Positions 9,168 to 34,322 of a stretch of 64,000 nt of DNA are shown here, one piece after another (position 1 is the first letter of the stretch; each line of letters starts with the position of its first letter). The DNA comes from an uncultured Thermodesulfobacteriaceae bacterium. Lineage in GTDB: Bacteria > Desulfobacterota > Dissulfuribacteria > Dissulfuribacterales > UBA3076. The position numbers and the translations under genes were made by a program. The DNA lies in assembly GCA_964646435.1 (NCBI GenBank), contig CAZYEJ010000002.1, forward strand, positions 14,897 through 78,896, written 5' to 3'. Under the pieces are notes generated by a model, which did not search any database, had not been told where the DNA came from, and saw only the letters and a program-made list of their open reading frames with translations.

Positions 9168-9210
9168 TTGACAACAGCATTTTTATATGTACAATAAACT
9201 GTACAGGAGG
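9168..9210 (+). promoter_or_regulatory. yefM-yoeB promoter with a dual TGTACA operator and an SD
   Basis: TTGACA (9168-9173), then a 16-nt spacer, then TACAAT (9190-9195). Two TGTACA hexamers at 9188-9193 and 9200-9205 sit 12 bp centre to centre. AGGAGG lies at 9205-9210, before ATG 9217. Confidence 0.6.
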
Positions 9211-9216
9211 TGCTTT

Positions 9217-10804: not shown

Positions 10805-11707
10805 TCAGGTGCCAAGCAAGGCCATCAATTCTTCAGGATCAAGTCTTTTGCCCAGAAGACTCACTCCCCAGTGGAGATGTGGCCCTGTGGCCCGTCCGGT
10901 GGACCCGGCAAGACCAACAACCTGGCTTCGTTCCACTTCTTGTCCTTTTTTGACTTTATAACTGACAAGGTGCGCATAAAGGGTGTATAGACCTTTGCCA
11001 TGATCAAGGATAACTGTCTTTCCGCTTAGATAACAGTCTCTGGCCATGGTCACTTTTCCATAATTGGAGGCGAGGATAGGAGTACCTTCAGGGGCCCTTA
11101 AATCCACACCTGAGTGGGGGCTCCTGGGCTTATTATTAAATATCCGCCTGAATCCGAATGGACTGAGAATTTTGGAATTTACAGGCCAGATAAAAGGCCT
11201 TTTCCAGTAAAGCGTATTTGAAATCTTGTCACATGTTTCTCTTACGGCCTTCTGATCGTTTAGCACTCGCTCCAGAATTTTCGGGGGAAATTCCACCATG
11301 CGCTCCGGTACGGAAAGACGTTCTTCCGGGAAGTCTCTTGCCATTACCCGAACTTCGTGGGAGTAAAGGTCAGAGCCGTCAGGCCCCTGCCATTTGACAG
11401 TCAGGATGTGGGTTCCTGGCTTACAATCAAGACCTGCTCCAATGAGTACAAAATAATCCCGGCTGGATGGGTCAAGGTGGTATGGGATTTTTTTCCCAAG
11501 AAACTTGACATCAAGGAGATCCATTTTGTCATTTATTTTTATTGTGGCCAGCGCGATTCCTCCAAGAGGGATCTTGTCAGGTTCCATACTTACCGAAACC
11601 GGATACGATCCAGCCTCTACCTCCAGATTGCAGCTCCAGATGGGGAAAAAACACGTCATAAAAAATATGAGCAGGCATGAGAAAAATCTTAGTTTCATTG
11701 ATATCAT
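10805..11707 (-). CDS. M23 family metallopeptidase (secreted)
   Basis: 300 aa with an N-terminal signal-like segment, plus 'PHSGVDLRAPEGTPI' and 'GPHLHWGV' (the HxxxD and HxH motifs). Confidence 0.85.
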   Translation of the reverse strand: MISMKLRFFSCLLIFFMTCFFPIWSCNLEVEAGSYPVSVSMEPDKIPLGGIALATIKINDKMDLLDVKFLGKKIPYHLDPSSRDYFVLIGAGLDCKPGTHILTVKWQGPDGSDLYSHEVRVMARDFPEERLSVPERMVEFPPKILERVLNDQKAVRETCDKISNTLYWKRPFIWPVNSKILSPFGFRRIFNNKPRSPHSGVDLRAPEGTPILASNYGKVTMARDCYLSGKTVILDHGKGLYTLYAHLVSYKVKKGQEVERSQVVGLAGSTGRATGPHLHWGVSLLGKRLDPEELMALLGT

Positions 11708-11777
11708 GATGAACAGCTATCAGCTTTTAGGTATTAGTAACTTATTTGGAAAACAGCAGCAAATTAACCGCTAACAG

Positions 11778-13235
11778 CTAATCGCTTAATTCAGTTTCAG
11801 ATAGTACTTTGTCCTGGTCTTTTCCTGTGGACAACACCTTGCAGATTATAGCACCCTTTTCAGGTCTTATCAGGAGACGTTCACCTTCTGCCACCTGATC
11901 AAATCGCTTTACAAGTTTCCCCCCGGATGTCCGATAAACCAGACTGTAGCCCCTGGCAAGGACTGCAAGCGGGCTCACTGCGTTTAGCTTTCCGGACAAC
12001 GTGGCAAGGGATTGGCGTTTTCTCTCAATAGAGACCGATCCGGCCCGGACCAAACGCCTTGACAGAGAGCAGGATTCGGCTTTGGCCAGGGCAAGCTGTT
12101 TTCCCGGTTCGTGTACCACGAGCCTTTCACGCAGGTTCAGGTATCCATGGGACCAGAAACCAATTTTTTCTTGCATGATCCTCAACAGCCTGGCATTAAG
12201 GTCGTCCTGTCGAAGTCTCTGCTCCACAAGTTTTCTTCTGGGATCCTTGAGTTGATGACGGAGTAATTGAACCGCCTGCTGATTGATTTTTAACCTGTTG
12301 TAAATTGAAAGGATAATTCTCCTGGTGAGGATTGCTACCTTGTCCATCAGCTCTTCCCTGCGGGGAAAAAGGAGCTGTGCCGCTGCAGTGGGGGTGGCGG
12401 CCCTGTGATCTGCCACAAAGTCTGAAATCGTGAAATCGACCTCATGGCCTACTGCCGAGACAACAGGTATGGTACAACTGAAAATCTCCCGGGCCAGGGT
12501 CTCATCGTTGAATGCCCGGAGATCCTCAAGCGAGCCACCTCCTCGAGTGAGCAGTATAACATCACCTTTCTCAGCAACATGTTGGGCAATTCTCAGAGAA
12601 TCAATTATTTCTCCTGAGGCCCCTTCTCCCTGAACACTTGCCGGGCAGAGTACGATGTTTGCCCCTGGATAGCGTCCCTTGGCATTCCGGATAAAGTCAT
12701 GGATTGCAGCGCCGGTTGGGGATGTGATAACAAAGACCCTTTGCGGAAGCAGTAGAAGCGGCAGCTTATGCTCAGGAGAAAAAAGGCCCTCTTTTTCCAG
12801 GCGTGCCTTTAGCTGTTCAAAGGCCAGTTGAAGAGCCCCCTCTCCCTTTGGTTCAACGGTTTCCGCCACCAACTGGAGATCGCCCCTGCCGGTATAGATA
12901 TTGAGCCTCCCGAAACAGATCACGTACTGGCCGTCCTCCAGCTCAAAAGGGAGGCGGGCAGCCTGGGACTTGAACAGCACGGCCTTGATCTGGGACCGAT
13001 TATCCTTCAAGGTGAAATAGCAATGGCCTGATGAAGGCTGTCGTAAATTTGATATCTCTCCTTCCACCCACAGGATATCAAAATCGAGGTCCAATCTGTC
13101 CTGGACCTTGGCTAAAAGATCCGAGACCTGCCAGACATGTCTGACAGAAGGAGGAGATTCCCGATTAATGTCGGGAGAGATAACACCTTCCAGGGCGGAA
13201 GGGGGAAACAGATTTTTGAGGGAATCTTCTATCAT
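11778..13235 (-). CDS. xseA: Exodeoxyribonuclease VII large subunit
   Basis: 485 aa with an OB-fold N-terminus ('VEGEISNLRQPSSGHCYFTLKD'), the catalytic core and a long coiled C-terminus. Confidence 0.9.
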   Translation of the reverse strand: MIEDSLKNLFPPSALEGVISPDINRESPPSVRHVWQVSDLLAKVQDRLDLDFDILWVEGEISNLRQPSSGHCYFTLKDNRSQIKAVLFKSQAARLPFELEDGQYVICFGRLNIYTGRGDLQLVAETVEPKGEGALQLAFEQLKARLEKEGLFSPEHKLPLLLLPQRVFVITSPTGAAIHDFIRNAKGRYPGANIVLCPASVQGEGASGEIIDSLRIAQHVAEKGDVILLTRGGGSLEDLRAFNDETLAREIFSCTIPVVSAVGHEVDFTISDFVADHRAATPTAAAQLLFPRREELMDKVAILTRRIILSIYNRLKINQQAVQLLRHQLKDPRRKLVEQRLRQDDLNARLLRIMQEKIGFWSHGYLNLRERLVVHEPGKQLALAKAESCSLSRRLVRAGSVSIERKRQSLATLSGKLNAVSPLAVLARGYSLVYRTSGGKLVKRFDQVAEGERLLIRPEKGAIICKVLSTGKDQDKVLSETELSD

Positions 13236-15820: not shown

Positions 15821-16888
15821 ATGCGCATAATACGTGAATTTTGGTTACCTGTTTTACTCTATTTAGTTTTTCTGTCCGGTTATCAGATCTGGAAAGAATA
15901 TACGTTGCCTGTTTCGGAAACAGGCAAAAATAAGATCATATTAATTCCCACAAGGAGCACCTTTTCCTCAGTAGCACAACAACTTAAAACAGAAGGTTTA
16001 ATCAAATCCAAGAGGGCATTTTATTGCTTGGCCTGGTGGGAAAATGCAACAACCAGAATCAAGGCAGGAGAATATGAGCTCTCTCCAACTCAAACTCCTG
16101 CAGAGATCCTGGATTGCCTGATCCAGGGAAAAATCCGCCAATATATGGTTACCATCCCCGAGGGCTATAACCTGTTTCAAATAGATGACCTTCTTGCAAG
16201 TGCAAAATTGATATCAAACGATTCATTTCTCAATGTGGCAAGAGACAAAAACATCTTAAGAACTTTGGGCATAAAGGCTGATAGCGCTGAGGGCTATGTT
16301 TATCCTGACACCTATCAATTAACCAAGGACGCCACGGCTCGTGAGATGCTCCGCACCTTCGTTAATCGTTTCTGGGAAGTATGGAATTCAGAAGGATTTA
16401 GCCGCAGAACGGAAGAATTGGATGTCGAAGTCCACGATATAGTGACCCTTGCTTCCATAGTGGAAAAAGAGGCCATGCGGTCAAGAGAAATGCCGCTAAT
16501 TGCTTCCGTATTCTGGAATCGCTTGAAAAAAAACATGCCGCTCCAGGCAGATCCAACTGTCCACTATGGAATACTTGTGGAAACCAAGGTAAAAAAGCGC
16601 CGTCTCAGGTGGAAAGATTTAAGAAAAAGGACTCCCTATAACACTTACGTAAGCAGAGGTCTTCCCAAGGGACCGATTTCAAACCCGGGCAAGGAATCCA
16701 TCATAGCGACTCTCTATCCATCAAAAAAGAATTATCTCTATTTCGTTTCACGAAATAACGGGACACATTGTTTTTCCCGGACCCTGGCTGAACACAACAG
16801 GGCCGTAAATCAATACCAACGCCGGCCTAAACACCGACCCATAAAAAAAACCCCTACTGATTCAACACAAACTACTCCCCCACTTTGA
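15821..16888 (+). CDS. mltG: Endolytic murein transglycosylase MltG (YceG family)
   Basis: 355 aa with an N-terminal TM, 'ASIVEKEA' and 'YNTYVSRGLPKGPISNPG'. Confidence 0.9.
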   Translation: MRIIREFWLPVLLYLVFLSGYQIWKEYTLPVSETGKNKIILIPTRSTFSSVAQQLKTEGLIKSKRAFYCLAWWENATTRIKAGEYELSPTQTPAEILDCLIQGKIRQYMVTIPEGYNLFQIDDLLASAKLISNDSFLNVARDKNILRTLGIKADSAEGYVYPDTYQLTKDATAREMLRTFVNRFWEVWNSEGFSRRTEELDVEVHDIVTLASIVEKEAMRSREMPLIASVFWNRLKKNMPLQADPTVHYGILVETKVKKRRLRWKDLRKRTPYNTYVSRGLPKGPISNPGKESIIATLYPSKKNYLYFVSRNNGTHCFSRTLAEHNRAVNQYQRRPKHRPIKKTPTDSTQTTPPL

Positions 16889-17190: not shown

Positions 17191-17640
17191 ATGTTTAGAG
17201 GACGGTCGGCCCATGTCTTGGATGCCAAGGGCCGTCTTAGCATTCCAGCCCGTTTTAGAGAGTTCTTGCAGGCAAAATACGATGGCCGGTTGATAGTCAC
17301 CAACCTGCCCTCTTGCCTCGCAGCTTACCCTTTTGAGGAATGGCGAAAGATAGAAGAACATTTCAGCCGGTTCCAATTTGGACCTCCTGAAGTCGTAGCC
17401 TTTAAAAGATATTTGTTGGGAGCAGCAGCGGAGTGTTCCCTGGATGGCCAGGGGAGAATATTGATACCCTTGAAGCTCCGTGAAGAGGCGGGACTGACCA
17501 GGGATGTGGTTCTCTCGGGTATGCTTACTTATTTCGAAATATCAAACAAAGATAACTTAAACAAAGAATTGCAAAAAACGAGGGATAACTTTGACCAGTA
17601 CAGCAGCGACATCACCGCTAAATTCGGAATTAGTGGCTAG
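17191..17640 (+). CDS. mraZ: Transcriptional regulator MraZ
   Basis: 149 aa with duplicated SpoVT/AbrB-like halves: 'DAKGRLSIPARFRE' and 'DGQGRILIPLKLRE'. Confidence 0.95.
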   Translation: MFRGRSAHVLDAKGRLSIPARFREFLQAKYDGRLIVTNLPSCLAAYPFEEWRKIEEHFSRFQFGPPEVVAFKRYLLGAAAECSLDGQGRILIPLKLREEAGLTRDVVLSGMLTYFEISNKDNLNKELQKTRDNFDQYSSDITAKFGISG

Positions 17641-17650
17641 AAAGGAGACC

Positions 17651-18559
17651 GTGCATTGCCCTGTAATGGTCACAGAAGTGCTGGATGGTCTGTCGTTGAA
17701 GCCAGGCGGGGTCTATGTTGATGCAACACTGGGCATGGGAGGCCATACAGAGGCCATGCTGTCAAGATGCCCTGAAGTCAAAATGGTCCTTGGCCTTGAC
17801 TGTGACACAGAGGCCTTAGAACAGTCCAAATCCAGATTGGCCCTATTTGGTGACAAGGTTCGATTCGTTCACAGCAATTTTATCCATCTCCATGATGTTC
17901 TTTTATTCAATAGAATAGGGCAAGTTGATGGGATACTCATGGATCTTGGAATCTCAAGCTTCCATCTGGAGAATAGCAGGAGGGGCTTCAGCTTTTCCAG
18001 GGACGAACCTCTTGACATGCGCATGGATTCTTCCACCCCTGGTGCAGTGACTGCTGCTGACATGGTCAACAAGCTTCCGGTCGAAAGATTGACCGAGCTT
18101 ATCCAAACATACGGGGAAGAGAGATGGGCAAAGAGAATCGCCAAACGCATATATGACAGGCGGGAAACAGCCCCGATTCTGACCTCAGCGGAATTGGCGG
18201 AAGTGGTTGCCCATGCCATTCCCAGAAAATACCATCCACGCCGAATTCATCCTGCCACACGGACCTTCCAGGCGCTCAGGATCGCAGTGAACCGAGAGCT
18301 CGACAACCTTAAAGAGGCCCTTGGCTCACTCCCGTCTTGCCTGAGACCGGAAGGACGACTGTGTATTATCTCTTTTCATTCCCTGGAGGACCGTCTGGTA
18401 AAAATCGCTTTCAGAGAAGATAACAGACTGAAACCCTTAACTAAAAAACCACTGGTACCAAGCCCTGAAGAAATGCACAGTAATCCCAGAGCCAGAAGTG
18501 CCAAGCTGAGAATTGCTCAATGTGTGGAGCCCGACGCTACACAGTTAAAATTAACATAA
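17651..18559 (+). CDS. rsmH: 16S rRNA (cytosine1402-N4)-methyltransferase RsmH
   Basis: 'HCPVMVTEVLDGL', 'DATLGMGGH' and 'SFHSLEDR'. The start is placed at GTG 17651, after 'aaaggaga'; the track ORF begins at 17591, inside mraZ. Confidence 0.9.
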   Translation: MHCPVMVTEVLDGLSLKPGGVYVDATLGMGGHTEAMLSRCPEVKMVLGLDCDTEALEQSKSRLALFGDKVRFVHSNFIHLHDVLLFNRIGQVDGILMDLGISSFHLENSRRGFSFSRDEPLDMRMDSSTPGAVTAADMVNKLPVERLTELIQTYGEERWAKRIAKRIYDRRETAPILTSAELAEVVAHAIPRKYHPRRIHPATRTFQALRIAVNRELDNLKEALGSLPSCLRPEGRLCIISFHSLEDRLVKIAFREDNRLKPLTKKPLVPSPEEMHSNPRARSAKLRIAQCVEPDATQLKLT

Positions 18560-18604
18560 CTACCCTTGAGCCTCTTGCCGGGACCTGCTCTGGGAGGGAG
18601 AAAA

Positions 18605-18970
18605 ATGATTCCTCGATCAGCAACGATTAGAATACCCCAGAGAAATTTATATGTTCCGATGGCACAGAAAAACAACACCGGCAGCAGCCTTTCGTTCTCA
18701 AAAGTACTCAGAATAACCCGTCAAAAGACAATTGCGCTCATATTTGCTCTAGCCGCATTATTAATCCTGGGGTTCTGGACTACTCACGAGACCCTGAAAA
18801 TAGCAAAGGATATAGAGTTCCGCCAGCTAGAGAAAGGCCGTCTCAGTGCTCAATATCAGGATTTCAGCAATCAAATGGACCGGCTCAAAGCACGCAGCCG
18901 TATGGAAAAATTGGGGAAAAAAATGGGACTTCACTCACCCACAGCCAGGCAGACAATATTCCTTAAGTGA
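18605..18970 (+). CDS. ftsL: Cell division protein FtsL (bitopic, coiled coil)
   Basis: Assigned by its position between rsmH and ftsI. It has a single TM ('IALIFALAALLILGFW'), a coiled segment and a 'MGLHSPTARQTIFL' tail. ATG 18605 follows 'gggaggga'. Confidence 0.6.
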   Translation: MIPRSATIRIPQRNLYVPMAQKNNTGSSLSFSKVLRITRQKTIALIFALAALLILGFWTTHETLKIAKDIEFRQLEKGRLSAQYQDFSNQMDRLKARSRMEKLGKKMGLHSPTARQTIFLK

Positions 18971-18973: not shown

Positions 18974-19160
18974 TTAATTTGAGCGATTAACCTTTAGCGG
19001 TTAGCGGTTAGTTTAATGATTATCGGTCTGCCGCCCTGACAAGTAGGATGTTTTACTATTACAAATTTTTACCCATTTGGTGTTATTTCTAATTAACGTA
19101 ATGCCCGGATTTTTCAAAGCTAAACGCTAATGGCTAACAGCGAATCGCTTAACTTAACGG
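18974..19160 (+). repeat. Repeat family B copy 2 (MITE-like, both inverted ends present) filling the ftsL-ftsI spacer
   Basis: The left end 'ttaatttgagcgattaacctttagcggttagcggttag' and the right end 'ctaaacgctaatggctaacagcgaatcgcttaacttaa' are inverted relative to each other. The core matches 15627-15816. Confidence 0.8.
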
Positions 19161-19172: not shown

Positions 19173-20930
19173 ATGAGTTTTCCTTATAAAGATAAAAGAA
19201 TTTTGTTCCTTTTTGCCCTGGCAGGTCTTGTGATTATGGCCACATCGTTTGTTGGTTGCTTTTGGCAGAATAACAATGTCAATAGCGAAGACAACATTGA
19301 TTCGTCCAGGCTTTCTCAACAACGGAGCCATGACTACTATTCCCAGCAAAGCCCCCTGTGCAGGGGCGTAATTCTTGACAGGACAGGAGCGATATTCGCC
19401 GTAAGCCAAAAGACAACCTCTGCCTTAGCAAAACCTTCCAAGTTGCCGCAAGTTGATGATTGGGCACCACGGGTATCAGAAATCCTTGGCCTTGATCCTC
19501 ATGCTGTGACAAAACTGCTGTCGGAGAAACAAGACGTTATCTGTCTAAAAGAAGGCATTTCCTTAAAACAAGGTCTGAGGCTGAAAGACATGCGGCTTAA
19601 AGGAATAGAAATACAGGAAAAATATAAAAGGGTATATCCTTGCGGTCCACTGGCTTCTCCGGTTTTGGGGTTTGTCGATCACGGCGGCAGGGGCCTTGAG
19701 GGAATTGAATACACATATGACAGCCTTTTAAGCCACACTAATGTGTCACAAATTCACGCAGGTGGACAGGAACTTACGCTTACTCTTGGGAAAAATATTC
19801 AGTCATCAGCGGAAAAAGAGCTTGGCAGGCAGATGAAAAGACTTAAGGCAGATAAAGGCTGCCTTGTTATAATAAGTGTTGAAAATGGTGAGATCCTTGC
19901 CTTGGCCAGCAAGCCTTCCTGGGACCCGGAACGTTTTTGGGAACTACCTGCAGCAAACATTACAAATTACTCCCTACAAGATAATGTTGACCCGGTGGTC
20001 CTTGTGCCTCTCTTAAACTGGATGTTTGAACAAAGTGAGCTTCCAAAATCAGAAGATCAGCCTTTGAACAAAATGGAACATAAGTGGAAATGGGAAACTT
20101 TGGATAAAGGTCTGGTCCTATGGAGTCCCTGGACTGAACAGGAACTGAAAGATTTTGTCTCTTATGACGACCGGTCAAAAGACCTCTTGGCTCTGGGATT
20201 TGGTCAGTCTACAGGTATTGACCTTCCGGGTGAAGGCCAGGGCAGCCTGTCTTCAGCCCTGCCAAGGTCACAGAATTGCTTCTTATGCCAAGGTATCGCA
20301 GCCAGTCCGATCCAGATTCTAAGGGCCTTCTCCGCCCTGATAAATGAGAATATATTGGTGACACCACACGTGGCCCTACAAAGTCCTAATGAATTCCTGA
20401 CATCCGAGTCTTCCGTGAAGGATCAAAGACAGGCCAAAATCCCATGGTTAACAGAAGAGCTTATACTTAAATTGCGGAAAAACCTCGCGGTCAGGGGAGG
20501 GCCTTCTCTTGCGAGCATCAGGTGGAATGAACAGTCTGAGCAAATATCCACTCAATTTCCAGCCCAGGTCACTGTCCTTGGATTCTGGCCCGACAAATCA
20601 CCTAAAGTCAGTTATATTGTTTTGCTCGACGGCGTAAAAATTGATCCTCGTGAACGCCGGGGCACTTTAGGGCGAACACTAATAGTAGCAAAACAGGCGG
20701 CACAGGTACCCTTGAAAGACAAATGGCGAACGGTGAAAAGCCAAGAGACCAAAAAAGAACTCTCCAGGATGCCGAATCTTAAGGGAAAATCCATAAGACA
20801 GGCCTTTGATATTCTGCAATCCATAGGCATTTCCACCAAGCTCAAAGGTGTAGGGAGTGTGATCGCACAGAAACCAAGATCAGGAACGCCTCTTAAGGGT
20901 GTGAAGGTCTGCAGTATAACCTGCAAATGA
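19173..20930 (+). CDS. ftsI: Class B penicillin-binding-protein homologue in the FtsI position, with C-terminal PASTA; catalytic motifs absent
   Basis: 585 aa. The pedestal motifs are conserved: 'RGVILDRTGAIFAVS', 'RVYPCGPLASPVLGFV' and 'GLEGIEYTYDSLL'. So are 'GEILALASKPSWDP', 'CQGIAASPIQILRAFSAL' and the PASTA tail. No SxxK, SxN or KTG is found at the aligned positions. Confidence 0.8.
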   Translation: MSFPYKDKRILFLFALAGLVIMATSFVGCFWQNNNVNSEDNIDSSRLSQQRSHDYYSQQSPLCRGVILDRTGAIFAVSQKTTSALAKPSKLPQVDDWAPRVSEILGLDPHAVTKLLSEKQDVICLKEGISLKQGLRLKDMRLKGIEIQEKYKRVYPCGPLASPVLGFVDHGGRGLEGIEYTYDSLLSHTNVSQIHAGGQELTLTLGKNIQSSAEKELGRQMKRLKADKGCLVIISVENGEILALASKPSWDPERFWELPAANITNYSLQDNVDPVVLVPLLNWMFEQSELPKSEDQPLNKMEHKWKWETLDKGLVLWSPWTEQELKDFVSYDDRSKDLLALGFGQSTGIDLPGEGQGSLSSALPRSQNCFLCQGIAASPIQILRAFSALINENILVTPHVALQSPNEFLTSESSVKDQRQAKIPWLTEELILKLRKNLAVRGGPSLASIRWNEQSEQISTQFPAQVTVLGFWPDKSPKVSYIVLLDGVKIDPRERRGTLGRTLIVAKQAAQVPLKDKWRTVKSQETKKELSRMPNLKGKSIRQAFDILQSIGISTKLKGVGSVIAQKPRSGTPLKGVKVCSITCK

Positions 20931-23900
20931 TGTTTGGTAATACACGGCACGAAAGGACATTGCGGGATATGTTAGAAGTGCTGAGACCTGCTGTTTCTAT
21001 ATCACCTGAGTTGGATGACGTAAAAATCAAGGGCATATCCGCAGACTCCAGACAGGTAAAGCAGGGATACATATTTGTGGCAATTCCCGGCACGGAATTT
21101 GATGGAAGACAATTTATCAATGATGCCGTGGAGAAAGGAGCCTCTGCCCTGTTAATGCCAAGCCAAGATGTCCATCGTTACATCAAGACCGTTCCTGGAG
21201 CACTTCCTGTTATGGGAGTGGATGACCCCAGGTTTTCAACCGGTCTTCTGGCAAGTGCCTTTTATGGAAATCCCAGTGAAAAAATGGCCCTCATAGCCAT
21301 TACAGGCACTAATGGTAAGACTACGATCACATATCTTCTGGAAGGCATTTTCAGCAAAGCCGGGCTGAATCCTGGTGTAATCGGGACTGTAAACCAGAGA
21401 CATTGTGGTAAGGAGGTACCTTCTGAGCTCACTACCCCAGGTGCCATAAAACTACAGGAGATTCTGGCCGACATGTCGGAGCAAGGGGCAAAGGCAGTGG
21501 CCTTAGAGGTATCTTCCCACGCCCTTGACCAGCAGAGGATCTCAGGATGCAGTTTCGCAGCGTCTGTTTTTACCAATCTGGGCCGCGATCACCTGGATTA
21601 CCATCAAGACATGGACCAATACTTCCACGCCAAGGTAAAATTGTTTTTGGACTACCCATCTGATACTGCAATCATCAACATTGACGACTTGTATGGAAGG
21701 CGTCTGTGGAAAATAGTGCAAAGAAAAAAAATCAGTTATGGTCTCAGTCCTGAGGCCGATGTAAGACCTGAGTTCCAGTCAATCAATATTGATGGAATAA
21801 CAGGTAAACTTACCACGCCCAAAGGACCTGTCTCCATAAAATCCAGGCTTATAGGTCTGCACAACCTATACAATATCCTTGCAGCAGTGGCGGCTTCAAT
21901 CACCCTTGGGATAGATCCCGACTATATTCAGACCGGCATAGAAACAATAACGCGTATCCCGGGAAGGCTCGATCCTGTGCATACCCCACGGGGAGTGACC
22001 GCCTTTGTAGACTATGCCCATACACCTGACGCCCTTGAAAGTGTCCTGAACTGCCTTATCAGATTAGGGTCCAAGCCTCTGATCTGCGTAATCGGCTGTG
22101 GAGGAGACAGAGACAGGGGCAAGCGTCCTCTCATGGCGCAGGCAGCTGCTTCACTGGCAGATATTGTTGTGCTGACCTCGGATAATCCACGTACTGAAGA
22201 CCCTCTTGCCATACTCGATCAGATGTTGAACGGCCTCAGAGACCTTCCTCCCCATCACCCTGCAACTAAAGCTGAAGTGGAGGTAATTCCAGACAGAAGG
22301 GATGCTATTTTATGGGCAGCAGAACAAGTGAGGCCTGGTGCCTGTCTGCTCGTGGCAGGGAAGGGCCATGAAACCTACCAGATAATCGGCAACAAACGAC
22401 TTGCCTTTGATGACATGGAAATACTGAAAGAGGCATTTGGGGCAGAAGTCAGAGGTCAGAAGTCAGAGGTCAGAGGTCAGAGGTCGGAGTATAAGAGTAA
22501 TAGGTCGAAGTCAGAGAGTCTTGAGGATCAGGGACTTCGATTAAAGGCTTCTCAGGTGGCAAGGGCTATTGGAGCCAGAGTCCTTTCGGGTGATCCGGAT
22601 ACGGCAATCCATGGCATATCAACAGATTCCAGATCAGTAAGAAAAGGAAATATATTCTGGGCACTTTCAGGGGATCGTTTCAATGGCCATAATTTTGTCC
22701 TTGATGCTATAAAAAAAGGGGCCATCGGCGCGGTAGTCAGCTCGACCTTTGACTTTCGAGCTTTGACTTTAAGCCCTCGATCCTGTCCTATCCTGTTGCA
22801 AGTCCAGGATTCGTTAAAGGCCCTGGGAGATTTTGCAGCATGGTATAGGGAATACCTTGGAATCAAGGTGGTTGGCATTACGGGCAGTTGCGGCAAGACC
22901 ACTACAAAAGAACTAATTTTCTCAATCCTGGGGGAAAAATGGAAAGTGGCTAAAACCCCTGGGAATTTTAACAATCTTATCGGACTCCCGCTCAGCCTGC
23001 TTTCGGCCAAATCCGATGATGCATGGGCAGTGCTGGAAATGGGAACAAACCAACCGGGAGAAATACCCAGGCTGTGTGAAATTGCCAAGCCACAAGTGGG
23101 CCTTATTACTACCATACAGCCTGCCCACCTTGTCGGCCTGGGGGACATAAAGCAAGTAGCCAGAGAAAAGTGGGAACTCTGGAGAGCCCTTCCCCAAACA
23201 GGTGTGGCAGTGGTGAACCTTGACGATCCCTTGGTGATGGAAGGGGCCAAAGATCTAACGTGTCAAATAGTGGGCTATTCTCTGACACCTAATCCCCAAT
23301 TCAAAATTCAAAATTCAAAATTCAAAATTGCAATTACCTGCCTGTCCTGGACCCCGAGCGGGCATGGCACTCTGCTGGATCTGGATATTGACGGAAGCAG
23401 ACTCTCTGTTAATCTTTCACTTATAGGAAGGGCAAACGTGCAAAATGCCATTGCAGCCGCAGCTACAGGCCATGCAGTGGGGTTGACGCCGGCCCGGATC
23501 AAGCAAGGGCTGGAGGAAGTAAAACCAATTTCAGGCCGCCTTTTTCTAAAAAATCTTGGACCTGAATGGAGGCTGATAGACGATTCTTATAATGCAAACC
23601 CCGGCTCTATGAGAGCGGCTCTTGAGACTCTCAATCTTTGGGGTAAAGGCGAAAAAAAGATAGCGATCCTGGGAGACATGCTGGAACTCGGAGATGCGGC
23701 CTACGACTTCCATCATGACATTGGACGACTTACAGCCGATACAGGAGTTGATTTTCTGATCTTCGTAGGCGAATTTGCGGATGCTGTTTCCGAAACCGCC
23801 CAAAAGGCCGGTATTTCGCAAAAGGCTATTCGCATCTTCCCCAACACGGAGGATTTGCTTTCCTGGATAGAACCAGCCGCCCTTGACTGCATGCCCTCTC

Positions 23901-23986
23901 CGGCAACCGTACTGGTAAAGGGATCGCGGGCCATAGGCCTTGATAGAGCAGTAGATGCCCTTATCAGGCATCTGGGAGAAGGATAG
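20927..23986 (+). CDS. murE/murF: Fused MurE (meso-DAP-adding ligase) / MurF (D-Ala-D-Ala-adding ligase)
   Basis: One 1019-aa ORF. The MurE part has 'ITGTNGKTT' and 'DNPRTEDP' and ends at about '[10 protein letters not shown]'. The MurF part runs from about '[15 protein letters not shown]' and has '[12 protein letters not shown]'. There is no stop or obvious start between them. Confidence 0.85.
22443..22520 (+). repeat. Tandem heptamer array (GTCAGAG-like, about 11 units) encoding the MurE-MurF linker
   Basis: 'cagaa gtcagag gtcagaa gtcagag gtcagag gtcagag gtcggag tataaga gtaatag gtcgaag tcagaga' translates to '[24 protein letters not shown]'. Confidence 0.85.
23297..23331 (+). repeat. Tandem heptamer array (ATTCAAA x about 4.5) inside murF
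   Basis: 'caattcaaaattcaaaattcaaaattcaaaattgcaa' translates to '[13 protein letters not shown]'. Confidence 0.85.
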
Positions 23987-23991: not shown

Positions 23992-25071
23992 ATGCTTTTT
24001 CATCTGCTATATCCCCTCCACGATTTGTGGCCTGTATTCAATGTCTTTCGCTATATCACGTTCAGGACAATATATGCGACTGTTACCGCCCTCTCAATAA
24101 TATTGTTCCTCGGGCCTTGGTTTATGAGACGTATGTGTGCAATGCAGATGGGCCAGGTCATCAGGGACGACGGGCCGGCAAGGCATCATGCAAAAGCCGG
24201 GACACCAAGCATGGGGGGCATATTAATCATTGTGTCCATCCTGGTCGCCACACTCCTGTGGGCCGACCTCAGGAATCTTTACGTGTGGATAAGCATTTTG
24301 ATTCTTGTCGGTTACGGCACAATAGGCCTTGCAGACGACCTGCTGAAAATCAGAAAACAAAACAGCATCGGCCTGTCCGGTAGATGGAAGCTCGTGTGGC
24401 AGACAGTATTTGTACTTCTGGCCGCAGGTATAATTGCCGCACATGGTAAGTGGGATAGCCATCTTAGTATCCCGTTTTTTAAGAACTTTCAGCCTGATCT
24501 CGGGATTATGTATGGTCTTTTTGCCCTGCTTGTGGTCGTTGGTACCTCCAATGCAGTTAATCTGACCGACGGTCTGGACGGGCTTGCTACCGGCCCTTTT
24601 ATAATAGCCGCATCAGTCTACGCCCTGTTTACATACCTGGCCGGCCACTCGACTCTTGCCCAGTACCTCCAGATTCCTTCGGTTCCCGGCGCAGGAGAGC
24701 TTGCGGTGTTTTGTGGCGCAATGGTAGGGGCCGGTTTGGGTTTCCTCTGGTATAATACCTATCCTGCAGAGATCTTCATGGGAGATGTAGGTTCTCTTGC
24801 CGCGGGTGGTGCCCTGGGAACAGTGGCCGTTCTCTCAAAGCAGGAAATGCTGCTTGTAATTGTAGGTGGAGTCTTCGTAGTTGAGGCATTATCCGTAATT
24901 CTTCAGGTTTTTTACTTCAAAACAACAGGAGGCAAGAGGATCTTCCGTATGGCTCCCATCCATCACCACTTTGAGCTTAAGGGATGGAAAGAGCCAAAGA
25001 TCATTGTGAGATTCTGGATAATTTCTATATTGCTGGGGCTGGTGGCAATCAGCACGCTCAAGCTCAGATAA
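23992..25071 (+). CDS. mraY: Phospho-N-acetylmuramoyl-pentapeptide transferase
   Basis: 359 aa, polytopic, with 'GTPSMGG' and '[13 protein letters not shown]'. Confidence 0.95.
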
Positions 25072-25099: not shown

Positions 25100-26521
25100 A
25101 TGGAACTGAAGGGCAAAAAAGTAACAATACTGGGCATGGGGATATCCGGCCGGGCGGTTGCCGGATGGATCGTCTCTCAAGGGACACAAGTCATATGCAG
25201 TGATTTGAATCCCCTGAATAAGTGGCCTAAGGGCCTGGCAGGCTGGTGTGATAAAAATGGCGTTGGAGTGGAGACAAAAAAACATAAGGTAGAGACTTGC
25301 CTTTCATCCGACCTGATAGTGGTCAGCCCTGGTGTTCCGCCTGAAATTCCTGCCCTTGAGGCAGCACGCAGATCCAATATCCCTGTGGTTGGAGAACTGG
25401 CCCTTGCGGCATCCTTCTGGAGAGGACCTCTAATCGGCATAACCGGCACAAATGGAAAAACTACTACTACTATGCTTGTGGATGAGATGCTAAAAAAGGC
25501 CAATGTGCCTCATGTAAGGGCAGGGAACATTGGAACACCATTATCCGCGCTCGTTGAAGAACATACCGAGGAAACTATCGCGGTTTTAGAGATTAGCAGC
25601 TTCCAGTTGGATTATTTCCCAAGGACCAGGTATTTTCCTTTTACTCCTCCAAGGTTCAGGACAACAGCATGGCTCAATTTTGCGCCGGACCACCTTGATC
25701 GCTACCAGGACATCAAGAGCTATGGAGAGAGCAAGGCAGTAATCTATGACTTCCAAAGGCCTGAAGATTGGGCCATTCGCAACATGGACGACAAGGGACT
25801 AGAAACGTGGAAGGACAAAGGACGTGCCAGAAGGCTCTACTTCGGGATATGGCACCCCGGAGTTCCCGGAGCCTGGCTGGATACCTCTTTAAAAAAAATC
25901 AAAGTCATGTGGCCTGACAATAAATGGGAGGAATATGACTTAGAAAGCTGGTCCCCAAAGGGTCGACATAATATTGAAAACCTGGCTTGTGCCATACTTA
26001 TTTCACGCCTGGCAGGTGCTGGTGCGGCTGCAGTACAGTCTGTTATCCAAAACTTCAAAGCGGCACATCACAGACTTCAGTGGGTGGCCCAAAATGCGGG
26101 CATCGACTATTATGACGACTCCAAGGCCACCAATGTTGCATCTGTACTTCGCGCAATGGAGTCCATAGATCAGCCAATAGTGCTCATCGTGGGCGGCCGC
26201 GGCAAGGGTGAAGATTATGCTTCCCTGGCCGAGGCCACAAAAAAGGTGCGTATTCGTGGTGCGATTGTTATAGGCGAAGAGGCCAAGGCGTTTGAAAAAA
26301 TCCTAAATAAGGTAATGCCGGTTATCCAGGTGCGTGGAACAAAAAACGGCAAAAAGATTATGAGAAAAGCCGTAATGGAAGCAACGTCCCTGGCTGAGCC
26401 CGGTGATGCCATACTCCTTTCCCCTGCCTGTTCCAGCTTTGATATGTTCAAGAACTATGAAGAACGTGGCATGGCATTTCAGGAGGCAACCAGGGAATTG
26501 GGTGATTGGGTAATTGGGTGA
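25100..26521 (+). CDS. murD: UDP-N-acetylmuramoylalanine--D-glutamate ligase
   Basis: 473 aa with 'ILGMGISGRAVA', '[12 protein letters not shown]' and 'DDSKATN'. Confidence 0.95.
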   Translation: MELKGKKVTILGMGISGRAVAGWIVSQGTQVICSDLNPLNKWPKGLAGWCDKNGVGVETKKHKVETCLSSDLIVVSPGVPPEIPALEAARRSNIPVVGELALAASFWRGPLIGITGTNGKTTTTMLVDEMLKKANVPHVRAGNIGTPLSALVEEHTEETIAVLEISSFQLDYFPRTRYFPFTPPRFRTTAWLNFAPDHLDRYQDIKSYGESKAVIYDFQRPEDWAIRNMDDKGLETWKDKGRARRLYFGIWHPGVPGAWLDTSLKKIKVMWPDNKWEEYDLESWSPKGRHNIENLACAILISRLAGAGAAAVQSVIQNFKAAHHRLQWVAQNAGIDYYDDSKATNVASVLRAMESIDQPIVLIVGGRGKGEDYASLAEATKKVRIRGAIVIGEEAKAFEKILNKVMPVIQVRGTKNGKKIMRKAVMEATSLAEPGDAILLSPACSSFDMFKNYEERGMAFQEATRELGDWVIG

Positions 26522-26533
26522 TTGGGTAATTTT
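26497..26533 (-). repeat. Tandem octamer array (GGTRATTG, the inverse of CAATYACC) spanning the murD 3' end and stop codon
   Basis: 'gaattg ggtgattg ggtaattg ggtgattg ggtaatt'. It encodes 'ELGDWVIG*', so the TGA lies inside a repeat unit. A related 'atttggtgatttggtaattgaatgg' at 25078-25102 contains the murD ATG. Confidence 0.85.
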
Positions 26534-26569
26534 AAGAATGGAATTTTAATTTGAAAATGCAGGCAGATT

Positions 26570-27796
26570 GTGAACTTAATTATGAGTCACGAAATATATA
26601 AACACAAAACAATCACCAAATCACCAAACCACCAAATCACCAGATTAGTGGTGGCTGGTGGTGGCACAGGCGGACACGTGTTCCCCGGAATTGCCGTAGT
26701 TGAGGCCATGGAGTCCCATGGCCGTATAGATGTTATGTGGATAGGCACAGGCCGCCCGGTGGAAAAAAATGCACTTTCAGGACGTAAATGGGATTACCGA
26801 ATTCTCAACACAAGGCCTCTCAGGGGCTCAGGCATTGCAGCAACCATGCGTTCTCTGGCTGGACTTCCTTTCTCCACGATCAGGGCTTGTTCGTGGCTTA
26901 AATCATTCAGGCCTCATGTGGTACTGGGTGTTGGGGGATATGTCTCCGGACCTGCACTTCTTGCAGCGCGAATGTTGCGGATACCTGCCGCCCTCCATGA
27001 GCAGAACCTTATCCCAGGGCTCACAAATCGTTTGGCCTCCAGATTCGCAAAGACAGTGTTTGTGAGTTTTAAAGAAACTGCTAAATACTTTCCCAAAAAC
27101 AGGGTAATTTTTACTGGAAATCCCATACGGAAAAATATTATTCAATCACTCAATCACCAAATCACCAAATCACCAAATCACTCAATCACCAAATCATTCA
27201 ATCTTCTGGTCCTGGGAGGCAGTCAGGGTGCCAGATGCCTGAACAGGCTTGCCGGTTCGGCCATACAGGTTTTGTGGCAATCCGGTTTTCATTTGAAAAT
27301 TATTCACCAAACAGGCAAGCTGGATGAGTCACATGTTGAGAAATTTTATAAGGATGCAAGCATTCCGGCCAAAGTGACCCCATTTATCTCTAACATTGGT
27401 GAATCCTATTCCTGGGCAGACTTGGTTATCTGCCGGGCCGGAGCAGGTACTCTGTCTGAGCTCACAACCTTGGGGAAACCATCGATCCTCATTCCCTATC
27501 CCTGGGCAACGGACAGCCATCAGGATGCCAACGCCAGAGAATTGACTGAAGCCGGGGCTGCCAAATACTTCCTGGAAGAAGAAATCGGTGCTATAAAACT
27601 GGCGGGAGAGATACAGTCTTTGCTGGAGGATCCCCAGCAACTCATCAATATGGGAAAAAATGCTCAAAAACTTGGAAAACCCACGGCAGCTACAGAGATA
27701 GCCTCTACACTGATAGAGATAGCCGGACATACTTTTCCATATTCTGAAACAGAAACTAATTCATTGAAAGGTTCTACAGTACGTAACCATGTATAA
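26570..27796 (+). CDS. murG: Undecaprenyldiphospho-muramoylpentapeptide beta-N-acetylglucosaminyltransferase
   Basis: 408 aa with 'GGGTGGHVFPGIAV', 'VLGGSQGA' and 'RAGAGTLSELT'. The exact start is uncertain (26570 GTG or 26582 ATG). Confidence 0.9.
   Translation: MNLIMSHEIYKHKTITKSPNHQITRLVVAGGGTGGHVFPGIAVVEAMESHGRIDVMWIGTGRPVEKNALSGRKWDYRILNTRPLRGSGIAATMRSLAGLPFSTIRACSWLKSFRPHVVLGVGGYVSGPALLAARMLRIPAALHEQNLIPGLTNRLASRFAKTVFVSFKETAKYFPKNRVIFTGNPIRKNIIQSLNHQITKSPNHSITKSFNLLVLGGSQGARCLNRLAGSAIQVLWQSGFHLKIIHQTGKLDESHVEKFYKDASIPAKVTPFISNIGESYSWADLVICRAGAGTLSELTTLGKPSILIPYPWATDSHQDANARELTEAGAAKYFLEEEIGAIKLAGEIQSLLEDPQQLINMGKNAQKLGKPTAATEIASTLIEIAGHTFPYSETETNSLKGSTVRNHV
26609..26643 (+). repeat. 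Tandem octamer array (AAATCACC x about 4) in the murG 5' coding region
   Basis: 'caatcacc aaatcacc aaaccacc aaatcacc ag' translates to 'ITKSPNHQIT', immediately before the GGGTGGH motif. Confidence 0.85.
27142..27210 (+). repeat. Tandem octamer array ([AC]AATCAC[CT] x about 8) in the murG interdomain linker
   Basis: 'caatcact caatcacc aaatcacc aaatcacc aaatcact caatcacc aaatcatt caatctt' translates to 'QSLNHQITKSPNHSITKSFN', between 'GNPIRKN' and 'LLVLGGSQGA'. Confidence 0.85.
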
Positions 27797-29183
27797 AAAA
27801 CAACATATGCATTTTATAGGAATCGGCGGAATAGGCATGAGCGGCCTTGCAAAGGTCCTTCTCAATCTTGGATATAGAGTCACGGGTTCTGATTTGCGTG
27901 AGACTGAAATCACCAGGTCTCTAAAAAAACTGGGAGGCACAATTTACAGGGGTCACGCCCCTGAAAATATTCAGGGTGCCGACGTGGTGGTGATTTCCTC
28001 TGCTGTTAGAGAAAACAACCCTGAGGTTCAGGAGGCTTATTCTGCCCAAATTCCGGTCATACCAAGGGCTGAAATGCTTGCGGAATTAATGCGGTTTAAG
28101 AAGTTCGGCATAGCAGTGGCCGGGGCACATGGAAAGACCAGCACGACTTCTATGATCTCTTCTGTACTTCGCACCGGTGGCCTTGATCCAACGGTTATCA
28201 TAGGCGGGAAGGTGAATGGCCTGGGAAGCAATGCCTGCTGGGGACAGGGAGAATTCCTGATAGCAGAAGCCGATGAGAGTGACGGAAGTTTTCTGCGCCT
28301 TACACTAAGCATAGCTGTAATAACCAATATAGACAGGGAACACCTGGACTATTATCCGGACCTGAATGCCATAATCCGGTGTTTTCTGGACTTCATAAAC
28401 AAAGTCCCTTTCTATGGTCTTGCCATACTCTGTGGAGATGACCCCCACCTCAGAGAAATGCTCCCGGCAGTAAAAAAACGAGTAATGACATATGGGACAG
28501 GACCTGAGTCTGATCTGCAGGCCAGAGATATTACCTTTGAAGGTCTGGGAGTATCCTTCAGGGCCTGGTGGAAAAACTCCGAACTTGGCGAGATACAACT
28601 CAAGGTCCCCGGGCTGCACCATGTAAGAAATTCCCTGGCTGCAATGGCCCTGGGGCTTGAACTTGAGATACCCTTTCACAAAATTCAGACCGGTCTTATA
28701 TCATATGAAGGTGTAAGCAGACGATTTGAAATACTGGGTGAAACAGAGGGAATAACAGTAGTAGATGACTATGCCCACCACCCTACTGAGATACGGGCCA
28801 CCCTATCAGCGGCCAGGGCATGTTGGCCTGAACGCCGGCTGGTGATTCTTTTTGAACCCCACCGGTACAGCAGAACCCAGATATTAATGGACGATTTCAC
28901 CACGGCCTTCGGGGAAGCTGATGAATTATGGCTGACGGAAATCTATTCAGCCAGTGAAACTCCCATAGTCGGAGTCAGCGGAAAACGTCTGGCAAGAAAC
29001 ATTAGGGATAAACGTGGTGGACCAGTGCACTATGTAGAATCCTGCGGGGACCTTCCTCTGGCGATTGTACCAAGCCTGCGGGAGGGTGACGTGGTCATGA
29101 CTCTTGGGGCCGGTGCCATAGGGCGTATAGGACCAAAAATTCTGGACATGCTTAAGACAAAGGAGTCAGCGCTTGCTCTCTAA
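27789..29183 (+). CDS. murC: UDP-N-acetylmuramate--L-alanine ligase
   Basis: 464 aa with 'FIGIGGIGMSGLA' and 'AGAHGKTSTTSM'. Confidence 0.95.
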   Translation: MYKKQHMHFIGIGGIGMSGLAKVLLNLGYRVTGSDLRETEITRSLKKLGGTIYRGHAPENIQGADVVVISSAVRENNPEVQEAYSAQIPVIPRAEMLAELMRFKKFGIAVAGAHGKTSTTSMISSVLRTGGLDPTVIIGGKVNGLGSNACWGQGEFLIAEADESDGSFLRLTLSIAVITNIDREHLDYYPDLNAIIRCFLDFINKVPFYGLAILCGDDPHLREMLPAVKKRVMTYGTGPESDLQARDITFEGLGVSFRAWWKNSELGEIQLKVPGLHHVRNSLAAMALGLELEIPFHKIQTGLISYEGVSRRFEILGETEGITVVDDYAHHPTEIRATLSAARACWPERRLVILFEPHRYSRTQILMDDFTTAFGEADELWLTEIYSASETPIVGVSGKRLARNIRDKRGGPVHYVESCGDLPLAIVPSLREGDVVMTLGAGAIGRIGPKILDMLKTKESALAL

Positions 29184-30075
29184 GGATCTGGAAAGGATAG
29201 GAGATCTCCAGGTGCGCAAGAATGTTCCGCTTTTACCGCTAACAAGCTTTCGTATAGGCGGGCCTGCGCATCTATTCCTGGTTCCAAGGACCTTGAAGGC
29301 CCTTGAACAGACCATTTGTTATCTCAGTAATCGTTCCATATCCTATAAAGTGCTGGGCCGGGGAAGCAACCTGTTGATCAACGATAAAGGCGTGAAGATA
29401 GTCATGACCCTGACAGCCCTGAATCGCATCCACTGCCCTCCCGACCATCCCTTTAAAACAGTGTCTGTAGAGGCGGGATGCAGGCTGAACTCCCTTATTT
29501 CCTGGTCCATACGATACGGCCTGTGTGGTCTTGAGAATCTTTCGGGCATTCCGGCCAGTATAGGTGGGGCCATATCCATGAACGCCGGCACTAACAAGTG
29601 CTCCATGGCAGAAGCGATAGATGCAGTACAATTTACAGGCCCGAACGGGAGTTGCTGGTTTCGGAGAGATCAATTGCAATTTGATTACAGGTCTTTCAGA
29701 CTGCCAGACAAGGCCCTTATCTCCGCCGCAAGAATTCAACTTGGCAAAAGTAGCCCTGATCAGATCAGATGCAATGTCAGAAACGTGATGTACAAACGGA
29801 GGACCACCCAGCCTATAGGAAAACCAAGCGTAGGGTGCATTTTTAGAAATCCACAGGGAGATTCAGCAGGAAAACTCATAGACCAATGTGGACTCAAAGG
29901 TCTTAGAATCGGGGATGCCGAGGTATCCAAAAAGCATGCGAATTTTATTGTAAACCGTGGAAAAGCCAGTGCCATACAGGTAATGGACTTGCTGGAAATC
30001 ATTAGAGGGCGTGTAAAAAAAGAGGCTGATGTAGAACTTGTCCCGGAAGTATCCATTTGGGGTATGGAAACATGA
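29173..30075 (+). CDS. murB: UDP-N-acetylenolpyruvoylglucosamine reductase
   Basis: 300 aa with 'FRIGGPA', 'LGRGSNLLI' and 'SVGCIFRNP'. Confidence 0.9.
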   Translation: MLSKDLERIGDLQVRKNVPLLPLTSFRIGGPAHLFLVPRTLKALEQTICYLSNRSISYKVLGRGSNLLINDKGVKIVMTLTALNRIHCPPDHPFKTVSVEAGCRLNSLISWSIRYGLCGLENLSGIPASIGGAISMNAGTNKCSMAEAIDAVQFTGPNGSCWFRRDQLQFDYRSFRLPDKALISAARIQLGKSSPDQIRCNVRNVMYKRRTTQPIGKPSVGCIFRNPQGDSAGKLIDQCGLKGLRIGDAEVSKKHANFIVNRGKASAIQVMDLLEIIRGRVKKEADVELVPEVSIWGMET

Positions 30076-30917
30076 AAGTCAGAAGGCCGTCTTCAGAATT
30101 TAGGTCTTCAGTACGTAGCTCCGGCTCGCGGAATAAGTCTGCTAAACCGATGTTTTCAGTATCGTGGCTTATCAATTCTAAAATATTGGTTGGCATAGCC
30201 GTAACGTGCATTGTGCTTGTAGGATTTTTTATGTGTCGGCATTGGGCATGTCAATCTGATCTTTTCAGGGTTTGTCAGGTTCTGGTGAAAGGCTGCGATC
30301 GCGTCACGGAAGAGGAGGTTTTGCAACTGAGCAATGTGACCGCCCAGGACAATCTTTTATCTCTCGATCTGAAATCAATTGCAGCGTCCATAGAGGCGCA
30401 TCCCTGGGTCCATACGGTTAAAGTTAAAAAAAAATTGCCGGATCATCTAATGATTACGATCAAAGAACGTACTCCGGTAGCCCTGTTGAATTCTGACAAA
30501 ATGTATTTGATTGATAAACAAGGTAAAATTATCGATGAACTTTCAACAAAAGACCCAGTCTCTCTTCCCATCATTACCGGGTTTGATCCTAAAAACATAA
30601 AAAATAATCAAATCACCAAATCACCAAATCACCAAATCCAAAAAGTCCTGGAATTAATATCCATGGCAAGCAAAGGCACAAGAACTCTGGGTGTAAACAA
30701 TATTAGCCAAATAGACGCAGCTAAAAAAGATACACTAATACTCTATACATCTGACAGCGGTATTCCTTTTTACTTTGATACTAAAAATCTCAGCACCCAG
30801 TTCAGTGAGGCGGAAAAAATCCTGTATCAACTCTATCGCTCAGGAACATATAAAAAAGTTGCTAAGGTTGATTTGGATTACGGCCCCGGCCAGGCCCTGG
30901 TCAGTCTGAAACATTAG
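30057..30917 (+). CDS. ftsQ: Cell division protein FtsQ (POTRA-containing)
   Basis: 286 aa with a basic N-terminus, one TM, a POTRA-like 'VCQVLVKGCDRVTEEEVL..' and 'HPWVHTVKVKKKLPDHLMITIKER'. It sits in the dcw position. Confidence 0.8.
   Translation: MGYGNMKVRRPSSEFRSSVRSSGSRNKSAKPMFSVSWLINSKILVGIAVTCIVLVGFFMCRHWACQSDLFRVCQVLVKGCDRVTEEEVLQLSNVTAQDNLLSLDLKSIAASIEAHPWVHTVKVKKKLPDHLMITIKERTPVALLNSDKMYLIDKQGKIIDELSTKDPVSLPIITGFDPKNIKNNQITKSPNHQIQKVLELISMASKGTRTLGVNNISQIDAAKKDTLILYTSDSGIPFYFDTKNLSTQFSEAEKILYQLYRSGTYKKVAKVDLDYGPGQALVSLKH
30604..30640 (+). repeat. Tandem octamer array (AAATCACC x about 4) inside ftsQ
   Basis: 'ataatc aaatcacc aaatcacc aaatcacc aaatcca' translates to 'NNQITKSPNHQIQ'. 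Confidence 0.85.
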
Positions 30918-34319: not shown

Positions 34320-34322
34320 AGG

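Follow-up and report, generated by a model that had tools for sequence, protein, structure and literature searches.

INTRODUCTION

The FtsW–FtsI pair, a major antibiotic target, is usually regarded as the engine that drives septal wall synthesis in nearly all bacteria. In canonical pairs of a SEDS protein and a penicillin-binding protein of class B (bPBP), the anchor helix of the bPBP packs against the SEDS protein. To our knowledge, the only well-studied exception to FtsW–FtsI so far is C. difficile. A non-catalytic role of FtsI has been inferred from engineered mutants of B. subtilis and S. aureus, and we know of no report of such a state in nature. Here we analyze an FtsI homologue that appears to be a natural case. 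It is encoded in the dcw (division and cell wall) cluster of a 64-kb stretch of DNA (contig CAZYEJ010000002.1, assembly GCA_964646435.1), hereafter the window. The gene for this protein, which we call pseudo-FtsI, occupies positions 19173–20930 (+ strand, as are the other dcw genes of the window and its mltG, below) and encodes 585 residues plus a stop. It lies between ftsL and murE, and its stop overlaps the start of the fused murE–murF gene by 4 bp. An earlier note on this DNA had proposed that the protein is a catalytically dead FtsI; its open reading frame (ORF) lies exactly where that note had put it, and every peptide string quoted there is present.

Pseudo-FtsI resembles FtsI (PBP3) of E. 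coli and P. aeruginosa in its ftsL–murE slot, its architecture of anchor, pedestal and transpeptidase (TPase) domain, its fold and its pedestal boxes. It differs in lacking the three catalytic motifs, in carrying a PASTA domain, in having an anchor that ends in a lipobox and in having no ftsW partner in the cluster. Mycobacterial PBP-lipo, reportedly another class B PBP that is a predicted lipoprotein, is said to be catalytically active, unlike pseudo-FtsI; PMC9170245 speaks in its title of an essential PBP with a part in septal peptidoglycan synthesis. Catalytically dead relatives of cell wall enzymes are known at the divisome as well: the degenerate LytM factors EnvC and NlpD act as regulators by activating amidases. 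These have the M23 peptidase fold and a known mechanism, whereas pseudo-FtsI has another fold and no known target.

That catalysis by a division bPBP can be dispensable, and that such a protein can have an essential structural role, is known from B. subtilis PBP2B, which functions without its catalytic serine (S309A; PMC5656894), and from C. difficile SpoVD (PMC5656894, PMC12713402). Those cases rest on engineered point mutations and depend on a second, active bPBP, whereas the inactivation of pseudo-FtsI is natural and ancient, affects every motif and is accompanied by the disappearance of ftsW from the cluster. Division in C. difficile proceeds without FtsW/FtsI, via a class A PBP with FtsQLB homologues (PMC10693644, PMC10441361, PMC12539705). 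As in the present case, FtsZ and FtsQ/L-type regulators are kept and the canonical FtsW–FtsI synthase is missing (PMC10693644, PMC12539705). Yet C. difficile belongs to the monoderm Firmicutes, and its dcw SEDS/bPBP pair is active and specialized for sporulation; in the present diderm member of the Desulfobacterota, the cluster has lost its SEDS gene and kept a dead bPBP. Text searches of the literature and a 2025 survey of SEDS/bPBP architecture (PMC12516126) yielded no earlier report of a dcw cluster with an FtsI that naturally lacks the motifs.

RESULTS

All three active-site motifs are missing from pseudo-FtsI

We aligned E. coli FtsI (NC_000913) with 120 homologues of pseudo-FtsI using MAFFT, and compared the profile of the dead family (alignment A1) with that of 22 canonical FtsI sequences (alignment A2) using hhalign, which gave a probability of 100%. 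Both methods matched P274-V275-V276-L277-V278-(gap)-P279 to P305-G306-S307-T308-V309-K310-P311 of E. coli. Val276 hence stands at the catalytic Ser and the catalytic Lys is deleted, in line with the earlier note, which had reported neither residue at this site; the protein reads D273-P-V-V-L-V-P279 (19989–20009) where E-P-G-S-T-V-K-P is expected. The SxN site is lost as well. Here both methods matched W317-S318-P319, within L316-W-S-P-W320 (20118–20132), to E. coli S359-S360-N361. The string SYD (330–332), to which the note had assigned this site, is off by 13 residues, an error that leaves the loss itself unaffected. The 585 residues contain neither K[ST]G nor H[ST]G. The region where K-T-G is expected, residues 441–459 (20493–20549), has no Lys-Thr/Ser-Gly; depending on the method, the equivalent site is strand 446–450 or, in the loop that follows, residues 455–459. 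S307, K310, S359 and K494-T495-G496 do not vary among the canonical sequences.

Residues conserved in at least 80% of the family are mostly structural and common to canonical FtsI (the pedestal boxes, GFGQxTGIDLPGE, Q381, P473 and P477), and the pedestal boxes are as conserved in the dead family as in canonical FtsI. W317, Q465, W472 and Y481 are conserved specifically in the family, and three of these (W317, W472 and Y481) lie at the former catalytic cleft. At the position once held by the catalytic Ser of SxN, W317 is 86% conserved in the family versus 0% in canonical FtsI; the adjacent S318 varies (S, G, T or A). Across the dead family, no column pair holds a conserved S..K or K[ST]G, and the domain has no conserved Lys. 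The only SxxK strings of pseudo-FtsI, SAEK212 and SSVK413, lie outside the aligned position, as the note had said. They are retained in just 33% of family members, and were rejected as cryptic active sites on account of this poor conservation.

The alignments establish that acyl-enzyme transpeptidation by pseudo-FtsI would be impossible, because the Ser–Lys pair, SxN and KTG are all gone and no acyl-enzyme intermediate could form. Given these losses, the protein should neither cross-link peptidoglycan nor bind β-lactams such as penicillin or bocillin.

The class B architecture is retained

The reading frame is uninterrupted, and Pfam models match three domains above their cut-offs: PBP_dimer (PF03717) at residues 64–169 (44.8 bits; cut-off 24.4), Transpeptidase (PF00905) at residues 229–405 (54.8 bits; cut-off 22.1) and PASTA at residues 532–575 (32 bits; cut-off 23.2). 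The Transpeptidase match covers profile positions 1–190 only; correspondence over the full length of the TPase domain comes from a Foldseek match to PBP3. The NCBIfam models SpoVD, PBP2 and FtsI gave only sub-threshold matches. In a phmmer search of the PDB, the top match was P. aeruginosa PBP3 (E = 8e-25), and this alignment ends precisely at the break in 'dvfEPG/STVKP', versus 'dnvDPV/VLVP' in pseudo-FtsI.

Pfam and the alignments place the pedestal at residues 62–228 (19356–19856), where the class B boxes RGxIxDRxG, RxYPxG and GxxGxEyxyD are retained. Residues 229–515 (19857–20717) form a TPase-fold domain devoid of an active site, according to Pfam, Foldseek and hhalign, and residues 532–585 (20766–20927) form the PASTA domain (Pfam, hhalign). 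An AlphaFold2 model based on alignment A1 (mean pLDDT 76, pTM 0.72) found its best Foldseek matches in the PDB in P. aeruginosa PBP3 (E about 1e-30, TM-score 0.56–0.70) and C. difficile SpoVD, over ~520 columns. As modeled, pseudo-FtsI has the full class B PBP fold. Helix 274–289 of the model is the one that normally bears the catalytic Ser at its N-terminus, where pseudo-FtsI has Val276. The pedestal, TPase-fold landmarks and PASTA domain that the note had pointed out are thus borne out.

The dead family is broad and under purifying selection

All of the homologues P0001–P0058, which range from 92% down to 31% identity, lack SxxK, SxN and KTG (58/58), whereas all more distant homologues (≤28% identity) carry EPGS(T)xK, S(S/C)N and KTG(T). 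Judged from these sequences, the split between motif-less and motif-bearing homologues is far beyond chance. A profile search of 1.84 billion representatives gave about 29 clusters at 50% identity, scoring 295–773 bits, all motif-less; canonical bPBPs start at ≤270 bits. Related genomes thus share the substitutions, down to ~31% identity. Five further dead bPBPs (P0161, P0168, P0173, P0175 and P0182) fall within the same clade, and all dead sequences form one clade, in a neighbour-joining tree that has no bootstrap and is indicative. The 90% cluster of pseudo-FtsI has 35 members. The identical protein is found on independent ENA and Logan contigs, and dozens of independent assemblies carry the same 585-residue protein. 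Some family members lack the PASTA domain.

We estimated dN/dS (Nei–Gojobori) between the window and two other Seep-SRB2 species, L003 and L002. For the whole dead ftsI gene, values were 0.25 and 0.29, respectively, and for the dead TPase domain alone they were 0.22 and 0.20. For murE–F, murD, murG and murB, values ranged from 0.23 to 0.27 over both comparisons. Purifying selection on pseudo-FtsI is therefore the same as on the neighbouring mur genes. An enzyme fold that has been kept, catalytic residues that have been lost and purifying selection together mark pseudo-FtsI as a pseudoenzyme. The central claim of the earlier note, a well-preserved but catalytically dead PBP3 with all three motifs missing, holds for the window and across the family.

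The canonical ftsW slot is empty

The order of the cluster is mraZ, rsmH, ftsL, dead ftsI, murE–murF fusion, mraY, murD, murG, murC, murB, ftsQ, ftsA, ftsZ, so that pseudo-FtsI occupies the dcw slot of ftsI. The first genes are mraZ (17191–17640), rsmH (mraW; 17591–18559) and a full-length ftsL (18566–18970), whose product aligns to E. coli FtsL and has a transmembrane (TM) segment, a coiled coil and a conserved C-terminus. Downstream of the dead ftsI lie the gene for a MurE–MurF fusion of 1019 residues (20927–23986; NF008896, E = 3e-280), mraY (23992–25071), murD (25100–26521), murG (26570–27796), murC and murB (27789–30075) and ftsQ, ftsA and ftsZ (30057–33396). The remaining divisome core is intact and canonical. 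The murD–murG junction (26522–26569) is the canonical slot of ftsW; it is 48 bp long and empty, with no SEDS remnant.

In nine genomes with a dead FtsI (the window, L002, L003, L005, L006, L007, L088, L089 and L091), murD abuts murG and no SEDS gene intervenes. As a positive control, ftsW was found between murD and murG in six of six canonical dcw loci that span both genes. Since the dead clade is probably monophyletic, the nine absences are best counted as a single event or a few linked events rather than as nine independent losses. Searches with E. coli FtsI, MrdA, FtsW, RodA and DdlB (phmmer) and with 25 SEDS proteins (tblastn), which covered ~84 kb of one genome, found no SEDS ORF or remnant and no second bPBP in the 64-kb window, its 10-kb extension or ~295 kb of family loci. 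The nearest intact homologues, P0172 and P0059, are not part of any dcw cluster; as candidate replacement bPBPs they were rejected, being Spirochaetota proteins.

The murE–murF fusion is also present in L002, L003, L005, L006, L007 and L089 and is found in most of the dead-FtsI family, its halves joined by a low-complexity linker. Natural MurE–MurF chimeras are known (PMC10214165). The basal members L088 (GCA_964385695.1) and L091 (GCA_018812655.1) lack the fusion. They represent a more divergent dead-FtsI branch (P0182 and P0175) with a TM anchor plus PASTA, and have in common the upstream synteny selA, TPR protein, LOG, bipA and then mraZ. Because these two have separate murE and murF genes and a plain TM anchor, the distribution suggests that the motifs and ftsW were lost first, and that the murE–F fusion and the lipobox came later.

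Several other features adjoin the cluster. Upstream of mraZ lies mltG (yceG; 15821–16888), which encodes a glycan-strand terminase. The two genes are ~300 bp apart in the window and ~400 bp apart in L089 (mltG at 6904–7962), a family member of only 33% identity, an adjacency hinting that mltG may be functionally tied to the altered synthesis machinery. ftsL and the dead ftsI are separated by an insertion of ~184 bp (18974–19157) that resembles a miniature inverted-repeat transposable element, flanked by 41-nt imperfect inverted repeats that are 76% complementary. It is missing at the orthologous junction of L002 and L003. Its TTAGCGGTTAG-type motif recurs at 11764–11788, with 5 matches versus 0.02 expected by chance. 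Directly downstream of ftsZ, on the opposite strand (33393–35120), is a cyclic di-AMP synthase pair of cdaA (DAC domain) and a YbbR-domain (CdaR-like) gene.

The membrane anchor ends in a predicted lipobox

The N-terminus of pseudo-FtsI reads MSFPYKDKR-ILFLFALAGLVIMATSFVG-C29. Residues 1–29 (19173–19259) comprise a basic N-terminus, a hydrophobic segment and the lipobox S-F-V-G-C29. With K6, K8 and R9 upstream, they fit a PROSITE PS51257-type rule (our own implementation) and hence are predicted to form a lipoprotein signal peptide. Residues 30–61 (19260–19355) are a low-complexity tether rich in N, S, D and Q, poorly conserved in alignment A1; pLDDT falls below 50 over residues 26–61, indicative of disorder. 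The PROSITE-type rule identified a lipobox in 44 of 85 family sequences versus 0 of 139 canonical FtsI sequences, and a relaxed rule did so in 43 of 68 versus 1 of 112. If the anchor helix is indeed cleaved off, this would fit with the loss of FtsW.

The host is a Seep-SRB2 bacterium

The L003 protein is 86% identical to pseudo-FtsI and has the same gene order around it. It comes from the metagenome-assembled genome (MAG) Meg19_1012_Bin_147, which is Seep-SRB2 sp. 8 (Candidatus Desulfomithrium; Dissulfuribacterales, family UBA3076) (PMC10553843). With a dS of ~0.3, the window falls in the same genus as this relative, and a more distant member of the dead family is named Dissulfuribacterales. 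Seep-SRB2 cells are rod-shaped partners of anaerobic methanotrophic (ANME) archaea (PMC5947290). The host is a Seep-SRB2 species (Ca. Desulfomithrium), a consortium-living syntroph of ANME archaea and not a typical free-living proteobacterium. The earlier note knew of no such protein in free-living proteobacteria-like organisms; the host is of another kind, and we found no earlier report of a dead dcw FtsI.

L002 (JAIWFS010000004.1) is labelled 'MAG: archaeon isolate JL_RS_05_5', yet it carries a bacterial dcw cluster, and its FtsI is 91% identical to that of the window. Probably, it is a Seep-SRB2 contig wrongly binned with its ANME partner. Members of the Desulfobulbaceae have been reported to lack ftsW and to have rodA and pbpA (Geerlings et al., PMC7873302). 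A link between the dead family and cultured Desulfobulbaceae was not established, as the family member labelled 'Desulfobulbaceae' matched none but proteins from uncultured MAGs, including one named Dissulfuribacterales.

Elsewhere in the window, a gene for an M23/LytM peptidase (10805–11707, − strand) has HxxxD and HxH metal-binding motifs that are intact by eye; its product looks active, unlike a degenerate EnvC-type factor. Positions 580–3473 encode a UDP-GlcNAc 2-epimerase followed by a fused ATP-sulfurylase/APS-kinase of the PAPS synthase type (585 residues). The fusion looks assimilatory or sulfation-type, which is notable for a dissimilatory sulfate reducer. By sequence reading, the gene-poor segment 7975–10800 looks like a decayed mobile region, with a YefM/Phd–YoeB-type toxin–antitoxin pair (9187–9468 and 9465–9719) and a fragment resembling an IS200-like tyrosine transposase associated with repetitive extragenic palindromes (8364–8543, − strand). 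The peptide 'IPAFAGMT' occurs in short ORFs on both strands at ~7975–8263, suggesting a repeated DNA element.

DISCUSSION

The explanation we favor, with a probability of roughly 0.55, is that pseudo-FtsI is a class B PBP which has kept its fold, lost its TPase chemistry and been selected as a non-catalytic part of the division machinery, while the septal wall is made by another synthase. Pseudo-FtsI would still dock on FtsQ/FtsL at the FtsZ/FtsA ring, as suggested by the kept pedestal and by the intact ftsL and ftsQ next to it. Its anchor helix, which ends in the lipobox, would probably be cleaved, which would leave the protein in the periplasm, anchored by lipid through a tether of ~30 residues. 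Lipid II would still be made, because murE–F, mraY, murD, murG, murC and murB are intact. Another synthase, RodA–PBP2 or a class A PBP, would then polymerize and cross-link septal peptidoglycan; RodA–PBP2 is a candidate because a rod shape implies an elongasome. We infer that pseudo-FtsI serves as a divisome scaffold or regulator, one that would recruit, position or regulate the replacement synthase, and its PASTA domain and Trp-lined former active-site cleft might read or bind wall material. The earlier note had suggested either a scaffold or an unusual mode of septal synthesis. The absence of ftsW from the cluster, which it had missed, bears on the second suggestion; the first is a role that we, too, put forward conditionally.

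Several points weigh against this explanation. An intact FtsW and a second division bPBP elsewhere in the genome would make pseudo-FtsI an accessory protein and not the core adaptor. The motif loss that the dead sequences have in common could artificially group them in a neighbour-joining tree without support values. Roughly half of the family has no lipobox Cys, including the basal L088 and L091 with their plain TM anchors, so lipidation cannot be essential to the family's function. In pseudo-FtsI itself, the lipobox is a pattern-rule prediction, and there is reportedly a precedent for caution: a lipobox-like motif in E. coli FtsI, described by Hayashi et al. in 1988, is said to have been judged doubtful later.

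A stronger proposal extends the explanation to a whole clade. The diderm, FtsZ-using Dissulfuribacterales and their relatives, including Seep-SRB2, may have no FtsW–FtsI synthase at all, with the dcw FtsI acting as a lipid-anchored, non-catalytic adaptor from FtsQ/FtsL to RodA–PBP2 or a class A PBP. We put this forward tentatively, as a possibility that is more doubtful than the role proposed for pseudo-FtsI itself.

It is unlikely, in our estimate, that the septal machinery has merely moved, with an intact FtsW and a division bPBP encoded elsewhere doing the septal work and the dead copy assisting, either as an accessory regulator or paired with the active bPBP. There are analogies: inactive PBP2B of B. 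subtilis works together with PBP3, engineered dead PBP2B requires a second bPBP (PMC5656894, PMC12516126) and ftsW of Bacilli is located away from the dcw cluster (PMC10441361). Moreover, the ~84 kb inspected belong to one genome. But the window, its extension and every family locus searched are devoid of a SEDS gene and a second bPBP, the loss of ftsW and of the motifs coincides in 9/9 genomes, and the anchor helix that would contact the SEDS protein appears to have turned into a cleavable signal peptide.

Improbable, too, is a wall-binding lipoprotein that has acquired a new function outside the core divisome, either as a sensor of peptidoglycan or lipid II or as an activator of a class A PBP in the manner of LpoA/LpoB, using its PASTA domain and Trp-rich former active site. 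The lipobox followed by a long disordered tether, the retained PASTA domain and the family-specific aromatics at the cleft (W317, W472 and Y481) would all suit such a protein. Yet the gene still sits in the ftsL–murE slot, overlapping murE–F by 4 bp, and its pedestal boxes match those of true FtsI in conservation; PASTA and lipobox are each missing in some family members.

That pseudo-FtsI is still an enzyme, acting through non-canonical residues, is very unlikely. Some pseudoenzymes have migrated catalytic residues (PMC10211241), and the domain holds a few conserved polar residues (D273, D350, E354, S387, H399, S445 and Y481). But it has no conserved Lys, Ser..Lys or K[ST]G arrangement; N265, T347, D350 and E354 are just as conserved in canonical FtsI, in which their role is structural; Y481 is specific to the family; and S318 is variable. 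Finally, although the sequences come from MAGs, an artefact or a decaying pseudogene produced by frameshifts or misassembly (frameshift errors were among the findings that, in the earlier note, would overturn its claim) is refuted by the uninterrupted frame, the recurrence of the same protein in dozens of independent assemblies, dN/dS values of 0.25–0.29 and the conservation of new motifs in a family that has diverged to ~31% identity.

Because a conserved FtsI without a TPase active site is combined with the absence of ftsW from the division cluster, the sulfate-reducing bacteria of the dead-FtsI clade probably have an unusual way of making the wall at division. Pseudo-FtsI, under selection and with ftsW gone from the cluster, can be regarded as an evolutionary 'separation-of-function' allele that isolates the non-catalytic role of FtsI. 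It predicts that the FtsI surfaces still conserved are those that matter for scaffolding, and that the host bacteria would be insensitive to PBP3-specific β-lactams. It also adds a cell-biological trait for the poorly known bacterial partners in methane-oxidizing consortia. If the whole clade does lack FtsW–FtsI, its division machinery would represent a third natural design of the bacterial divisome.

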